Source of the DNA: Planctomycetota bacterium
GTDB lineage: Bacteria; Planctomycetota; UBA8108; SXIK01
Assembly: GCA_965223265.1 (NCBI GenBank)
Contig: OZ244999.1
Coordinates: forward strand, 1,984,001 to 2,048,000
Direction of reading: 5' to 3'
Length of the DNA stretch: 64,000 bases
Positions 3,994-9,061 of this stretch are shown here, in pieces. The first letter of the stretch is position 1. Each line of letters starts with the position of its first letter. The position numbers and the translations under genes were made by a program. Below the pieces are notes generated by a model. It was not told the origin of the DNA and made no database searches. It worked only from the letters and a program-made list of their open reading frames with translations.

Positions 3994-5421
3994 ATGCTCA
4001 AGGAAAACTATCCATACTACCTTGGCGGCGAGCCGGTTTACGCCAACGAAGAACTCGAGGTGAGGGACAAATACAGCGGCACGCTGGCGACGCGTGTGGC
4101 GCTGGCCGACGACAGCGCGATTGACAGGGCCATCGGTCGAGCTGTCGCCGCAACCGAGGCGTGTGCGCGTCTGCGGGCACATCAGCGCCAGGCAGTCCTC
4201 GAGCATTGCGTGCGACGCTTCCAGGAACGGTTCGAGGAGCTGGCGGTCACGCTCTGCGTGGAGGCTGGCAAGCCCATCAAGGACAGTCGTGGTGAGGTCA
4301 GTCGCCTGATCGACACGTTTAAGATTGCGGCCGAGGAGGCGGTGCGGCTCAACGGCGAAGTCCTGGCGCTCGATCGGACGCCGCGCACGCAGAACTACTC
4401 GGGCATGTGGAAACGCGTTCCGGTCGGGCCGTGCTCTTTCATCTCGCCGTTTAACTTCCCGCTCAATTTGGCGGCTCACAAGGTTGCGCCGGCCCTGGCC
4501 GTTGGTTGTCCGTTCGTCCTGAAGCCTGCGAGCCTCACTCCTCTCGGTGCGCTGATCATCGGCGAGGTGCTGGCGGAGACTGATCTTCCCGACGGGGCGT
4601 TTTCCATTTTGCCCTGCCGTCGCGACGGCGCTCGCCTGTTCACGGAGGATGACCGTTTTAAGTTGCTGAGCTTCACGGGTTCGCCGACTGTCGGTTGGGA
4701 TTTGAAGGCGCGCGCCGGAAAGAAAAAAGTCGTCCTTGAGCTCGGGGGCAACGCTGCCTGCATCGTCGATGCAGACGCCGACCTTGACGACGCAGTAGAG
4801 CGGATTGTGTTTGGGGCCTTCTATCAATCTGGCCAAAGCTGCATCGGTGTGCAGCGTATTCTGATCCACGATGCGGTGTACGACCGATTGAAGACCAAGC
4901 TTGTAGCTGCGACGCAAGCGCTCAAGATGGGTGATCCCAAGGATCCGGAGACGTTCATTGGTCCACTGATTTCCGAGCGTGAGGCTGTCCGCCTCGAGAA
5001 TTGGATTCAAGCCTCCGTCGCGGCCGGCGGAGAACTCTTGTGCGGTGGCCACCGTGACGGCGCTATGCTCGAAGCGTCGCTTCTCGAAAGCGTGCCCAGC
5101 GACCAAGATCTCTGTACCAAAGAGGCCTTCGGTCCGGTCGCAGTTTTGTCGCGGTTTTCGGACTTCGACGCCGCACTCGACGAAGTGAACGATAGCGTCT
5201 TCGGGCTCCAAGCAGGCATCTTCACGCGCGACCTGTATCGTGCGCAGCGGGCTTGGGATCGCCTTGAGGTTGGCGGCGTCGTCATTGGCGACGTTCCATC
5301 TTGGCGTGCCGATGCGATGCCGTACGGTGGCGTCAAGGAAAGCGGTCTCGGGCGCGAAGGTATCCGCTGGGCGATCGAGGACATGACGGAAGTGCGCCTC
5401 TTGGTGATTCGGACGCCGTGA
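3994..5421 (+). CDS. Aldehyde dehydrogenase family protein
   Basis: PFNFP, LKPAS, FTGS, LELGGNA, GQSCI (catalytic Cys), EAFGP and PYGGVKESG motifs. Confidence 0.95.
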   Translation: MLKENYPYYLGGEPVYANEELEVRDKYSGTLATRVALADDSAIDRAIGRAVAATEACARLRAHQRQAVLEHCVRRFQERFEELAVTLCVEAGKPIKDSRGEVSRLIDTFKIAAEEAVRLNGEVLALDRTPRTQNYSGMWKRVPVGPCSFISPFNFPLNLAAHKVAPALAVGCPFVLKPASLTPLGALIIGEVLAETDLPDGAFSILPCRRDGARLFTEDDRFKLLSFTGSPTVGWDLKARAGKKKVVLELGGNAACIVDADADLDDAVERIVFGAFYQSGQSCIGVQRILIHDAVYDRLKTKLVAATQALKMGDPKDPETFIGPLISEREAVRLENWIQASVAAGGELLCGGHRDGAMLEASLLESVPSDQDLCTKEAFGPVAVLSRFSDFDAALDEVNDSVFGLQAGIFTRDLYRAQRAWDRLEVGGVVIGDVPSWRADAMPYGGVKESGLGREGIRWAIEDMTEVRLLVIRTP

Positions 5422-6407
5422 GTGTGTTTGGCATGACAGCGACTTCTCCGTGTTTCGGCATCCCGGGTCGCAGCTGTCGTCGCCGCAAGTCGCTTGCGGT
5501 TCTGGTGGCGCTAGCGATCACCGTCGCTCGAACCGACGCGATGCATGGACAGGAAGGCGGAATCGAGGTTTTCGCCGCGGAGACGCTTTTCGGGCAAGGG
5601 TGGAGACTTTCGGCCAGCCATCTTTACAAACGCAAGGGCAACGTCTTTCGGGGAGACCGGCACCAAAACGACCCTCTGGATCGCCTCTTCGAGGAGCAGC
5701 GCTTCGTTGCTGGCGTCGACTATGGCGTGCTCCCGGCGTTGACCCTTTCCTTGCTCGTCCCCACTGTCTACAAGTCACAGCGGCAACGGGTGAGCGGTGG
5801 TGGGCGAGAGCGTCTGGAATCTTTCGGCCTCGGCGACGTGGCGCTCTTGGGGAAGTATCGCGTGTTCAAGCGCGACTGGGAGCGTGGCGCGTTCCACCTG
5901 GCGGTTATCTCGGGGCTGGAGTTCCCCTCCGGCGACACTGACGCCGACGAGGATGGCGTCCGCTTGCCACCAGCGCTGCAGCCAGGTCTTGGGGCATGGA
6001 ACCCGGTGACGGCGCTTGCAGCGAACCTCGAGCTGGACCTTTTCCGCTTCGATGGCCTCTTCTTTTACAAGATCAACACTGAAGGAGCGCAGGACTTCGA
6101 AGCCGGCGACTTCATTGTTGTCGAGTTTGATGCCCACTATCGCTTCTTGCACACTCAGTACCCCGGGCCGACCGCAAGTGCCAAACTCGGCGTGCAGTGG
6201 CGTCACGAAATGCGCGACGAGTTGGATGGGCATCGCGTTCGTAACTCCGGTGCGGACGTCATCGCTCTGCGTCCGGGCGTGTCGTGGCATCCTTTGCCGC
6301 AAATCGACATCAGTGTCACACTGGACGTTCCGATCTATCGCTATGTCAGAGGCGAACAACTGGTGTTGGACGTGCGGACGTTCTTTGCAGTAGGCTTGCG
6401 ATTTTGA
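5418..6407 (+). CDS. Outer-membrane beta-barrel 'transporter' (Phenol_MetA_deg-like family)
   Basis: Signal peptide, 'GLGDVALLGKYR' and 'GLEFPSGD' motifs, amphipathic strands and a C-terminal Phe (VGLRF). Start is either GTG 5418 (GTGA overlap with the ALDH stop) or ATG 5433. Confidence 0.75.
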   Translation: MSVFGMTATSPCFGIPGRSCRRRKSLAVLVALAITVARTDAMHGQEGGIEVFAAETLFGQGWRLSASHLYKRKGNVFRGDRHQNDPLDRLFEEQRFVAGVDYGVLPALTLSLLVPTVYKSQRQRVSGGGRERLESFGLGDVALLGKYRVFKRDWERGAFHLAVISGLEFPSGDTDADEDGVRLPPALQPGLGAWNPVTALAANLELDLFRFDGLFFYKINTEGAQDFEAGDFIVVEFDAHYRFLHTQYPGPTASAKLGVQWRHEMRDELDGHRVRNSGADVIALRPGVSWHPLPQIDISVTLDVPIYRYVRGEQLVLDVRTFFAVGLRF

Positions 6408-6466
6408 GATCTTTGTAAGGTCTGAACGTTGCGCCGTCTATCGAAGGAACCACTCGAGGAGAGAGT

Positions 6467-7027
6467 ATGCTGAAAAGACGCGCAAGTGCCGCGGTTTGGG
6501 CAGCGGTCTATGTTTCCAGCCTCGTTGGCTGCATGACGGCATCCAATGAATTGCCGCCTGGTGTGCGTCCGTTTGCTGAGGTGACGCTTCTCTTCGAGAG
6601 CTGAATCTGAAACGACAAGGCCTTCGGTTTGGAGAAGGCCTTGCGGCGCCAGGCTGGTGCCGACACCGTGACGCTCGACACCCGCAAGGGGACTGCGACT
6701 TTTACGTACAACACGCCGCGCCAGATTGACTTTGGTTCGATTCAGCGCGCGGCTCACACGGCCGCCTACACGATCAAAAGGCTTGAGCTAAGTGTGCTCG
6801 GCCAGTTGACGAGCGCGGCGTGTGCTGCCTGTCAAAAGGATGTGCCGCACTTGAAGGTCGATCAGACGGGGCAACTCCTGGAAATCCGAGGCGACCTCAG
6901 TGGGGTTGCCACCGGCACCCGCGCCCGACTGCTCGGCCGCACCGGGAAATGGGGCCGCGACCGTTTTGGCGCGCTCAGACCGCGGCCACACGTTGTTCTC
7001 GACGTTGTAACCTTGACGGCGGAGTGA
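6467..7027 (+). CDS. HMA-fold lipoprotein, probable selenoprotein with two in-frame TGA (Sec46 and Sec48, U-I-U)
   Basis: RBS GAGGAG before ATG 6467 and lipobox LVGC. The frame reads EVTLLFES-TGA-I-TGA-NDKAFGLEKALRR and continues in frame into ORF 6629..7027, which has an HMA-like beta-alpha-beta-beta-alpha-beta pattern and a later CAAC. A hairpin follows the TGAs. Confidence 0.75.
6617..6642 (+). promoter_or_regulatory. Putative bacterial SECIS hairpin
   Basis: AAGGCCTTC-GGTTTGGA-GAAGGCCTT, a 9-bp stem with a G-starting loop 16 and 22 nt after the two TGA codons. Confidence 0.65.
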
Positions 7028-7129
7028 GGGCGGGCGCCAGGCGGTCGGCGCCTTTGCAGCAGCGAGAGAAGCGGCTCCGCTTCGCCTTTCCATACGGGCG
7101 TTCGCGCATCAGTCCCTTCGTGGTGCGAT

Positions 7130-7591
7130 CTATCGATGCGCTTTGTGACAACCGCGACACGACCGGCCGATCGCTGAGAGCGCCGACTTCGCTGCGGAGT
7201 GCTTGTTAGCGGTCGTCGCGGCCGCAAGCTTCTTGGTATCGGCGGCGTACTCCCGAACGTACTTCGACCAAGAGCCGCTGCTACCTTTCGCCGGCTGCGT
7301 GCGTGCCAGGGCCGTCGAGAGGTGGGCGACAACTGCAGCCTTGGCTCGCACTGCCGCCCACGACTTGTCGTCAGCAGGGCTCTTTGCCAGATCCTTCTTG
7401 AGCTGTTGGACAAGCCCGCCCTTGCCGTTGACCACGATCATAATGTCAGTCGCGGTCAGCGCGCCGCCGCGCTTTCCCTGAGCATCGAGGCTCGGAATCG
7501 TTGTGGATACTCGCCGCGGCGCGACGAGCGCCGCAGCGCTCAGCCCTACTGCAGTAGCTAAGATCCATAGCGCACAGCGACGAGGTGTCAT
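7130..7591 (-). CDS. Cytochrome c'-like (class II) single-heme protein
   Basis: Signal peptide, helical body, C-terminal CRGCH heme motif and RBS AAAGGAG. Confidence 0.85.
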   Translation of the reverse strand: MTPRRCALWILATAVGLSAAALVAPRRVSTTIPSLDAQGKRGGALTATDIMIVVNGKGGLVQQLKKDLAKSPADDKSWAAVRAKAAVVAHLSTALARTQPAKGSSGSWSKYVREYAADTKKLAAATTANKHSAAKSALSAIGRSCRGCHKAHR

Positions 7592-7615
7592 GTCGAGCTC
7601 TCCTTTTTCTTGGCG

Positions 7616-9061
7616 TCAGTCACCCTGCTTCGCAGCGCGATCGTTCTTGATCAGCCGCTCGACCGCCTGGTTGAGCTTTTCCGGGGAGAATCCCACGTGA
7701 TGGCGCACGACGCGCCCGCTGCGATCGACGAAGAAGTTGGTCGGGTAGAGAAGGACGCCGTATGTGTTGTCCGCGATCGCACCTCCCATAAGAAGAACTT
7801 TCTGCTTCAGTTTCATCTCGCTGACGAACTTGGCGATGGTTGGGCCAGGTTCGTCCCAACCGTTCACGGCGACAATCACAAGACCTTGGTCACGATACTT
7901 CTCTTGCAGTTTGCTGAGGTAGGGAGCCTCCCTACGACAGGGTCCTCACCCGTAGCCCCAAAAACTCAAGATGGCTGGTTTGTCTTTGGTCAACTCCTTG
8001 AAGCTGACTTCCTTGCCGTCGAGGTCCTTGAGCTTGAAGTCGGGAGCTTGCCGGCCAAGTACTTTAGCGAGCATCTTGCCGGCTTCGGTCGCCTCGAAGA
8101 AGGAGTGGAACGCTTCGAGACGCAGCTCGAGCACGTCAGACAGGATCGCCACCGGCGTCGCCTTCGCCTTGGCTGCGAAGGCGGTGACCGCTGCCTTGAT
8201 TTCCGCGGACGGTGGGCGTTTGTCGAACACTGCTAGGGTGTTATCGAATGCATCGACCACCGAACTCCACGATGGTTTGGTGGCGCCTTTGAGTGCACCG
8301 CCTGTGTCGCGTTTGAGCTCGATCGTTTGCGCCAGGACGATCGTTTGATCGTCGACGGTAACGTCCACGGCGAGCGAGCGCTTAAACGACTCAACCTCAC
8401 CAGTCTCGGGATGCAGTTCGTAGCGGGCGCTGTAACTTTTTAGTTTCGACGGATTCTCCTGCAGCTCGAACTTGCGCGCTTCGCCGTCGCCGTTACCGGC
8501 GTTGAGAGCCCGTTCGATCACACGGCCGCTGGAATCGACGGTCGTAACGAAGGGAAGCTTCAGCGTCGCTGCGTTGAGGACGTTCAGCTCTGCATCGCTC
8601 TCAAGCTGCATGCCCTTCGCGGGCACCTGGAACGCCGGCAAGAGCTCGATGGGAAAGAAGATGTTGAGACCATGTGTCTCCTCACCGAGCTCGTGCGCCA
8701 CCGGGCTCGAATCGTCGGGGGACAGCGAATAGCCGCCCGGCGATGTCTGGAGGCCGAAGTATTCAGTCGTGGCGTACTTTGTGCCCGCCTCATCATCGAT
8801 CAGGCGCGTGATTCGCACTGACGTCGGGGATCGCCCTTCAATCATGACGTGGGCGGCGTAGGGAGAAGACGATGTCTCGTCTCCGATCGTTTGCGACAAC
8901 ACGGTCTTGCCGGAATAAATGGCGACCATTCCAGGCGCGGGGGTGCCAGCGCCTGGTTCGCCCCAGATCGCATCCGGGCACGCGCCGAGAACGACGGCGA
9001 GCAGTCCAAGCCGGCTGAATGCGAGCCAGCGTCCGCCGCGGTGCAAGCAAAGAGGATTCAT
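7616..9061 (-). CDS. Exported TlpA/thioredoxin-like (redoxin) domain selenoprotein, UxxC (Sec372)
   Basis: ORFs 7946..9061 and 7616..7879 are one frame: APDFKLKDLDGKEVS...AILSFWGYG-TGA-GPCRREAPYLSKLQEKYRDQGLVIVAVN...YPTNFFVDRSGRV. The TGA occupies the first Cys of CxxC. Confidence 0.9.
7919..7935 (-). promoter_or_regulatory. Putative bacterial SECIS hairpin
   Basis: Minus strand GTAGGGA-GGC-TCCCTAC begins 10 nt after the in-frame TGA (7946-7948). Confidence 0.7.

Follow-up and report, generated by a model that had tools for sequence, protein, structure and literature searches.

In a 64,000-nt stretch of a Planctomycetota genome (contig OZ244999.1, positions 1,984,001 to 2,048,000; hereafter the window), we analyzed a gene on the forward strand with two in-frame TGA codons, separated by a single ATC codon, that would encode an exported lipoprotein with selenocysteine (Sec, U) at both places (Table 1). 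Directly upstream lies a gene for a predicted outer-membrane barrel, and downstream, on the other strand, a second candidate selenoprotein gene. Read through both TGAs, the product of the first gene runs EVTLLFES-U-I-U-NDKAFGLEKALRR; under translation table 11, the locus breaks into a 45-aa open reading frame (ORF) and a 132-aa ORF. ATG 6467, the LVGC lipobox, the in-frame TGAs and the frame open to 7027, all described in a first-pass annotation made from the sequence alone, are present. On comparative sequence evidence, the locus is very probably a genuine double-selenocysteine gene, and it is hardly less probable that 6467-7027 is a real but mis-annotated gene for a double-Sec lipoprotein with a heavy-metal-associated (HMA) fold.

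Table 1. Features of the locus in window coordinates; functional assignments and codon readings are predictions.
Feature	Position	Strand	Remarks
Outer-membrane beta-barrel gene, PF13557 (Phenol_MetA_deg / COG4313-type channel)	5433-6407	+	Pfam score 50.7 bits (cut-off 22), E 3.3e-13
Shine-Dalgarno-like purine-rich stretch GAGGAGAGAG	6456-6465	+	From sequence reading; just 5' of ATG 6467
Complete selenoprotein gene	6467-7027	+	186 codons plus terminal TGA stop (7025-7027); architecture shared by orthologues
Lipoprotein signal peptide	6467-6532	+	Leader MLKRRASAAVWAAVYVSSLVGC; lipobox L-V-G-C, residues 19-22, with Cys22 at 6530-6532
HMA-like ferredoxin-fold domain	6572-6790	+	Residues ~36-108; AlphaFold2, Foldseek, VIA-align
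UGA-1, codon 46, read as Sec46	6602-6604	+	Met/Leu place of canonical G-M-x-C-x-x-C; invariant in 31/31 aligned members; Cys in relative P0065
UGA-2, codon 48, read as Sec48	6608-6610	+	First-Cys place of canonical CxxC; invariant in 31/31 aligned members
Hairpin H1	6616-6643	+	Perfect 10-bp stem 6616-6625/6634-6643; 8-nt loop GGUUUGGA
Hairpin H2	6644-6662	+	8-bp G+C-rich stem 6644-6651/6655-6662; GGC triloop; abuts H1
C-terminal OB-like beta-barrel domain	6782-7024	+	Residues ~106-186; CAAC with Cys119 (6821-6823) and Cys122 (6830-6832)
TlpA/ResA-like thioredoxin-fold lipoprotein gene, second missed selenoprotein gene	7616-9061	-	TGA 7946-7948 in FWGYG-U-GPC; 481 residues

The conservation of both TGAs carries this reading. 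A six-frame protein search recovered a homologue from 15 of 60 related genomes (24-50% identity), and each of the 15 contains exactly two in-frame TGAs. In 14 of them the motif reads [S/T/A]-U-I-U-N-D-x-A-F-G-[L/M] behind a lipoprotein-type leader, and in the remaining one (L030) it reads G-G-V-T-U-P-I-U, which places a UxxU where the canonical CxxC would stand. When 400 genomes were drawn evenly from the phylum, 21 yielded a match, and two TGAs were present in all 16 matches at E <= 1e-12 (the window's own genome included); the weaker matches are variants that read U-T-U (L071) and G-U-S-U-N-Q (L077) or have the UxxU, CxxU and triple-TGA forms of L072-L076 described below. Since every homologue from the protein searches retains both TGAs, their presence reflects more than chance, and the test of conservation proposed in the first-pass annotation came out on its side. 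A DNA motif pattern, run over one genome per GTDB species, matched 34 places, of which 31 were family members; the other three (L034, L038 and L063) lacked a homologous frame and were discarded as chance matches. Altogether, 36 distinct U-x-U gene sequences were gathered. The frame, the lipoprotein leader and both TGAs are maintained across more than 30 species at 31-55% identity, and Sec46, Sec48, Asn49, Asp50, Ala52, Gly54, Arg61 and Ala99 are invariant in 31 U-x-U members. The window protein matches the lipobox pattern [LVI][ASTVI][GAS]C, and by pattern matching a strict lipobox was found in 27 of the 34 distinct orthologues with enough upstream sequence; in the remaining 7 a Cys was found there by eye. 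In the relatives, this Cys lies 21-28 residues ahead of Sec46, after a hydrophobic stretch.

Judged by their labels, all true members of the pattern set came from Planctomycetota or unclassified bins, with the single exception of a contig labelled Glaciecola. This 8.7-kb contig (L045), binned to a gammaproteobacterium in a metagenome-assembled genome of Glaciecola sp., holds a complete cassette of barrel and U-I-U lipoprotein. Its closest relatives lie in Planctomycetota or unclassified bins (L051, L056), and its placement points to mis-binning or horizontal transfer.

The gene has escaped annotation, much as had been predicted of standard gene callers. In a library of 1.84 billion representative proteins, 87 of 96 relatives start at query residue 52 or later, after the TGAs, which marks them as truncated calls of a missed selenoprotein, and the named public copies are all labelled 'hypothetical protein'. 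A word-index protein search returned only the window's own truncated 128-aa call, and a promoter and terminator scan of 5000-7700 gave nothing useful.

If the TGAs were true stops, the locus would hold a 45-aa leader ORF and then, from TTG 6629, a second protein of 132 aa; otherwise it would be a pseudogene or contain a sequencing error. Table 11 yields exactly these two ORFs, and the public gene calls have the short form. However, the short form would lack both beta1 and an export signal, and maintenance of the frame, leader and both TGAs in more than 30 species is not expected of a pseudogene. Contigs from 4 public DNA runs agree with the window and show no other letter at either TGA; these runs cover 2 samples from a single study, from which this DNA may itself have come. 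The stop codons themselves point the same way. Among 34 complete distinct genes (a further 2 are cut by locus ends), the terminal stop is TGA in 16, TAG in 11 and TAA in 7, whereas neither TAA nor TAG ever occurs at internal codons 46 and 48. Because the terminal stop varies freely, TGA is an ordinary exchangeable stop in these organisms, and only the two internal TGAs are fixed. We therefore consider true stops, a pseudogene or an error very improbable.

Two observations on the DNA runs stand beside this. Assembly contigs of two runs break at ~6590-6627, amid short high-depth pieces. A 1353-nt contig from another organism matches 6599-6664 with 3 differences and diverges beyond, so that the stretch of UGAs and hairpins is nearly identical in DNA between different organisms of one sample.

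The apparatus for Sec insertion, whose presence had been named as a further check, is complete in the window's genome. tRNA-Sec scored 70.3 bits and was called SeC with anticodon tca by ARAGORN, and SelA (474 bits), SelB (68 bits) and SelD (309 bits) all exceeded their cut-offs. SelA occurs in 57 of the 60 relatives, all 15 carriers included, so that what Sec insertion requires is at hand but has no discriminating power. TGA replaces the redox Cys in other genes of this genome as well: 4 of 24 AhpC-TSA-type genes contain a single in-frame TGA there. One is the neighboring gene at 7616-9061. Outside the window, three further genes of AhpC-TSA/GPx type with such a TGA read VYGDT-U-PVC (L084), NWATW-U-GPC (L095) and VASK-U-GLT (L099). 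It is scarcely credible that the UGAs are instead translated without Sec, whether a reassigned code or near-cognate suppression supplies a standard residue (Trp, Cys or Gly). Nothing specific speaks for it, apart from one relative (P0026) that has Gly and Ser at the two places, whereas the full Sec machinery, the other genes with TGA at a Cys place and the conserved hairpins directly 3' of the UGAs all speak against it, as does the use of TGA as the ordinary stop of the window gene, of 16 of 34 orthologues and of neighboring genes. A genome-wide code with TGA as a sense codon was rejected on the same ground, since TGA ends these genes interchangeably with TAG and TAA.

The RNA downstream of the UGAs would form two hairpins, H1 and H2. 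The first-pass annotation had described a 9-bp hairpin at 6617-6642 and suggested that one selenocysteine insertion sequence (SECIS) might serve both UGAs. This hairpin does lie directly 3' of them, with a stem of 10 bp rather than 9, but the downstream signal consists of two adjacent conserved hairpins, not one. The gap to H1 is 11 nt from UGA-1 and 5 nt from UGA-2. A 71-nt stretch of the region has a predicted energy of -33.2 kcal/mol (z = -3.85), and not one of 200 shuffled sequences reached so low an energy. Across 30 distinct 84-nt regions, 87% of cells pair in H1, where 3 of the 10 pairs show two-sided changes, and 90% pair in H2, where 5 of the 8 pairs do; slid controls pair at 31-45%, and none of 500 shuffles reaches the covariation score. 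Over 36 distinct sequences from all subfamilies, H2 pairs in 91.3% of cells compared with 26-49% in slid controls; two-sided changes again affect 5 of the 8 pairs, and none of 500 shuffles is as good. These sequences are kin and not independent, so that the shuffle-based figures overstate the support, and for the pattern-derived loci the 5' half of the alignment was partly fixed by the search pattern; we therefore read the covariation as support, not proof.

The model of the bacterial SECIS (bSECIS) prescribes a stem of 4-16 bp, a loop of 3-9 nt with G within its first two positions, a distance of 16-37 nt between UGA and loop, and a minimum free energy of -7.5 kcal/mol or lower (PMC13188914). 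H1, whose energy ranges from -8.7 to -17.3 kcal/mol across all 30 sequences, fits the model with respect to UGA-1, from which its loop lies 21 nt away, and is borderline for UGA-2. H2 has a fitting loop, stem and energy in 30 of 30. Its stem of 7-8 bp and G-G-[C/U] triloop resemble the SECIS hairpin of the neighboring thioredoxin-like selenoprotein gene.

The predicted structure places both Sec residues in a metallochaperone-type domain. The AlphaFold2 model (82-row alignment) had a predicted local distance difference test score (pLDDT) of 89.2 and a predicted template modelling score (pTM) of 0.80. It shows the beta-alpha-beta-beta-alpha-beta ferredoxin-like fold of HMA domains (beta1 37-43, Sec loop 44-48, alpha1 49-63, beta2 67-71, beta3 76-81, alpha2 89-98, beta4 from 103), with both Sec residues in loop 44-48 and an all-beta second domain after beta4. 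The top Foldseek matches were HMA domains only (CopA, PacS, ZiaA, CopP, Ccc2a, Atx1, MerP and CopZ), with template modelling scores by target of 0.7-0.8 and root-mean-square deviations (rmsd) of 1.9-3.0 A. In an exhaustive VIA-align search, the top 12 rows were likewise HMA domains at middling Z scores of 6.8-7.8 (rmsd 1.9-2.3 A over 65-73 residues), while residues 103-186 resembled the OB folds of PriB, SSB, CcmE and RPA at an equally middling Z of ~6. In both searches, the HMA matches extended over the entire target domain. A family profile run against PDB sequences gave weak HMA matches only, the best at E 0.022. The HMA fold proposed at first reading is thus upheld by the model and by both structural searches.

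The canonical G-M-x-C-x-x-C is absent from this protein. In its place stands S-U-I-U-N-D-K, which leaves a chalcogen ligand at the first-Cys place only. In a 21-sequence alignment, Sec48 falls in the first-Cys column of relatives with G-[LM]-[AS]-C-P-F-C and in the first-Sec column of UxxU paralogues, Sec46 in the Met/Leu column and Lys51 in the second-Cys column. An HMMER profile alignment to CopA agrees, and these columns are those expected earlier, with the second TGA in place of the first Cys, the first TGA at the Met position and Lys instead of the second Cys. Pfam HMA was matched at E <= 0.01 by 5 of the 21 members, mainly the canonical CxxC and UxxU forms. The later CAAC, once suggested as a second metal site, is present in the window protein, but such a CxxC occurs in just 19 of 31 family members and is therefore no defining second site.

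A paralogous lipoprotein family carries G-G-[IV]-T-U-P-x-U at the canonical HMA site, with UxxU in L030, L073, L074 and L075 and a Cys-x-x-Sec variant, C-P-I-U, in L076. In these UxxU and CxxU paralogues, H2 keeps the same position (codons 60-65), and an analogous H1 has another sequence and register. A UxxU paralogue was not found in the window's own genome (query P0004). A further locus (L072:25-387, + strand) has three in-frame TGAs and reads U-T-U-N-D-U, the third falling at the place of the second canonical Cys, that of Lys51; its leader is out of view, as the contig begins just upstream.

Cys at the Sec positions was found in distant relatives. Nine of the 96 library relatives extend upstream of residue 52; two of these, the window's own 45-aa piece and an unrelated repeat protein (P0094), were discarded, which left 7 usable non-TGA relatives spanning the motif. 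The Sec48 column holds Cys in 4 of the 7 (P0065, P0089, P0095 and P0099) and the Sec46 column in 1 (P0065, CxCxxC). P0065 reads C-N-C-K-D-C and has Cys at all three places, in the columns of Sec46, Sec48 and Lys51, and the other three have a canonical C-P-F-C aligned to Sec48 and Lys51. A metagenome scan for the DNA of P0065 returned no match.

Besides the kinship of the aligned sequences, several observations weigh against our reading. Three of the 7 motif-spanning non-TGA relatives have neither Cys nor Sec (G/S in P0026, P/Y in P0097 and P/D in P0015), so the site can be lost and is dispensable in some lineages. The first-pass annotation had named non-Cys homologues as grounds for a pseudogene or sequencing error; such homologues exist, yet they are a small minority beside the more than 30 TGA-TGA orthologues. 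Among 29 hits at E <= 1e-10, two besides the self hits cover the motif, P0015 and P0026, and both have other residues there; no close Cys-for-Sec orthologue was present among the relatives found. The comparison of Sec with Cys therefore depends on distant relatives of 23-28% identity, with the Cys forms put at 20-26%. With regard to the RNA, the loop of H1 lies 15 nt from UGA-2 (14-18 nt across 30 sequences), one nt short of the 16-37-nt rule, and H2 lies 41 and 47 nt from the UGAs, beyond it; hence, neither hairpin is a textbook bSECIS for both codons. Rfam gave no relevant match around the UGAs at E <= 10. With regard to the fold, the best Foldseek E was only 1.2e-3, and Pfam HMA (PF00403) scored 18.7 bits against a cut-off of 24.8, over profile positions 17-61 only.

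One of these relatives deserves separate mention. P0026 is a full-length relative of 188 aa that reads F-E-S-G-I-S-S-D-Q-A-F-G-L, with Gly and Ser at the Sec places and intact flanks, and it may come from a lineage that no longer decodes Sec.

Overall, we propose a putative mechanism for the double insertion. Codons 46 and 48 would both be decoded as Sec by the SelA/SelB/SelC/SelD system of the genome, with H1 and H2 acting as a compound SECIS that directs both insertions. Folded H1 might serve as a compact spacer that brings H2 near the ribosome. During the 6-nt advance of the ribosome from UGA-1 to UGA-2, the three lowest pairs of H1, which are weakly conserved, could melt, and this partial melting would keep a SelB-binding hairpin in reach at both codons. 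Two UGAs, in one case three, within 6-15 nt and followed by twin hairpins offer a natural test of how SelB and the SECIS spacing rules deal with consecutive Sec insertion.

The only conserved neighbor of the family is the PF13557 barrel gene, which has the same orientation and immediately precedes the lipoprotein gene in 15 of 15 loci in one comparison and in 29 of 29 in another. COG4313 channels are 12-stranded barrels thought to import hydrophobic molecules. In the window, the longest ORF of the barrel gene begins at TTG 5301 and the mature N-terminus lies near QEGGIEVF (from 5550); ATG 5433 is the likely start. The barrel orthologues (n = 26) have signal peptides, a conserved mature N-terminus and a C-terminal ...R-F. 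A complex prediction with the barrel and the post-TGA part of the lipoprotein scored 0.27 against a mark of 0.34 and so gave no answer and no evidence either way. At L030, a related barrel gene (27% identity) also lies upstream of the UxxU paralogue.

The product would be an exported lipoprotein of 186 residues, with a divergent MerP/CopZ-like HMA domain followed by an OB-like beta-barrel. Its two selenols would sit in the beta1-alpha1 loop, at the metal-binding place of HMA domains, next to the invariant Asn49 and Asp50, and this U-x-U-N-D loop may bind a soft, selenophilic ion with high affinity, candidates being Cu(I), Hg(II), Cd(II) and Ag(I). The lipoprotein may partner the outer-membrane channel, taking a soft species from it or handing one over. 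Such a role is suggested by the metallochaperone fold, by the Sec residues at the ligand loop, by the extra ligand that L072 and P0065 possess and by the invariance of Asn-Asp, and we judge the chances to be even that the lipoprotein binds a soft metal or metalloid in concert with the outer-membrane channel. A broader proposal is that the cassette lets aquatic Planctomycetota capture metal, or selenium, in an obligately selenium-dependent way, and that its UGAs, 6-15 nt apart, are all served by a new two-hairpin compound SECIS; this is offered tentatively and is on balance doubtful.

The same two Sec residues could instead form a redox selenol/diselenide couple, a role already proposed for UxxU selenoproteins, in which case the protein would be a periplasmic oxidoreductase or a scavenger of peroxide or chalcogen. 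Most prokaryotic selenoproteins are redox proteins (PMC13188914), the second metal ligand of the HMA site (Cys2) is lost, and a Sec-containing TlpA-like reductase gene and a cytochrome c'-like gene adjoin in the window. However, these two neighbors are not conserved in other loci, and the fold is that of a metallochaperone rather than of thioredoxin. Moreover, L072 (with Sec) and P0065 (with Cys) add a third ligand exactly at the canonical metal-ligand place, and the invariant Asn-Asp after the Sec residues suggests additional ligands. We regard a redox couple as unlikely, though it accepts the double-Sec gene as real.

Lower still is the probability we assign to trafficking of selenium, tellurium or sulfur, in which selenide or Se(0) would be bound between the selenols for uptake through the channel in selenium-poor water. 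The carriers are all Sec users, the loci come mostly from bins labelled aquatic or marine metagenome, and the cassette couples a channel with a binding protein. On the other side, neither selD nor other selenium-metabolism genes are linked in the loci, and the idea is purely inferential, with no precedent in the literature examined. Under the preferred soft-metal reading, a soft metal or metalloid may cross the outer membrane by an unrecognized route, as the constant association with a COG4313-type channel suggests.

The neighbors on the reverse strand complete the picture of the locus. The TlpA/ResA-like gene matches AhpC-TSA (74 bits) and Redoxin (72 bits), with ResA at 92 bits, below its cut-off. 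Under table 11 it splits into two ORFs, 7946-9061 and 7616-7879, and its UGA is followed after 17 nt by a hairpin with a 7-bp stem and a GGC triloop. Between the two selenoprotein genes, 7130-7591 (- strand) encodes an exported 153-aa protein that ends in C-R-G-C-H-K-A-H and has a sub-threshold match to cytochrome c' (24.6 against 26.5 bits). A conserved operon of the lipoprotein gene with the thioredoxin-like selenoprotein and cytochrome c'-like genes was considered and rejected, as these are not adjacent in other loci.

HMA-type selenoproteins are already known, and the U-x-U lipoprotein family, with its unusual twin-hairpin region, appears to be a new form among them. No HMA U-x-U protein figures among the 119 prokaryotic selenoprotein families tabulated in a 2026 review (PMC13188914), no model of NCBIfam release 20 reaches the window protein, and no description of an HMA U-x-U lipoprotein was found in the literature, although PMC4807772 Table S9 and BSepDB entries, which stood outside the comparison, might list one. 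The missed family, with 36 distinct genes and 96 library clusters, is widespread in Planctomycetota, a phylum whose selenoproteome has been little described. It indicates that the CxxC metal site of HMA domains can be re-registered to U-x-U-N-D, and the lack of a close Cys-for-Sec orthologue, which is unusual among bacterial selenoproteins, hints that sulfur cannot substitute for selenium here.

Clustered Sec residues have been described in other proteins. A rhodanese-related sulfurtransferase with UxU from the Olavius delta-1 symbiont was reported as a single new form (PMC1976440) and is the only bacterial UxU that we found in print. It likewise implies two UGAs 6 nt apart and presumably one downstream signal, but its fold and chemistry are unrelated, and in the window family the UxU is invariant throughout. 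In eukaryotes, the Sec-rich C-terminal region of SELENOP and UxxU selenoproteins contain clustered Sec, with UxU among the arrangements, and have been linked to the binding of heavy metals (PMC11818150). These proteins use a SECIS in the 3' untranslated region, have another fold and are not homologous to the window protein.

The closer comparisons are with the HMA proteins themselves. NF041115, a predicted family named 'metal-binding (seleno)protein' with UxxU, is like the window protein HMA-type and has two Sec residues at the metal loop. The window protein nevertheless gives no match to it at E <= 10 (cut-off 95 bits). Its UxU motif is shifted by two residues and its second ligand is lost, and the lipoprotein leader, the OB-like domain and the outer-membrane barrel partner are features of the window protein. 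Four of the 21 members of the alignment, none of them UxU, match NF041115, and the UxxU paralogues L030 and L073-L075 do so weakly, at 22.5 bits. The only NCBIfam match of the window protein is NF045683, the MerT/CopZ fusion-like heavy-metal transport selenoprotein (E 0.032; 13.7 bits against a cut-off of 375; profile positions 163-225 of 235), which shares the CopZ-like HMA module and Sec but has a MerT membrane domain that the window protein lacks. MerP, CopZ and Atx1 (PF00403) share the beta-alpha-beta-beta-alpha-beta fold with the ligand loop between beta1 and alpha1, and MerP is also periplasmic. Where these proteins carry G-M-x-C-x-x-C, the window protein has S-U-I-U-N-D-K, with selenium predicted in place of sulfur, together with an OB-like domain and a lipid anchor.

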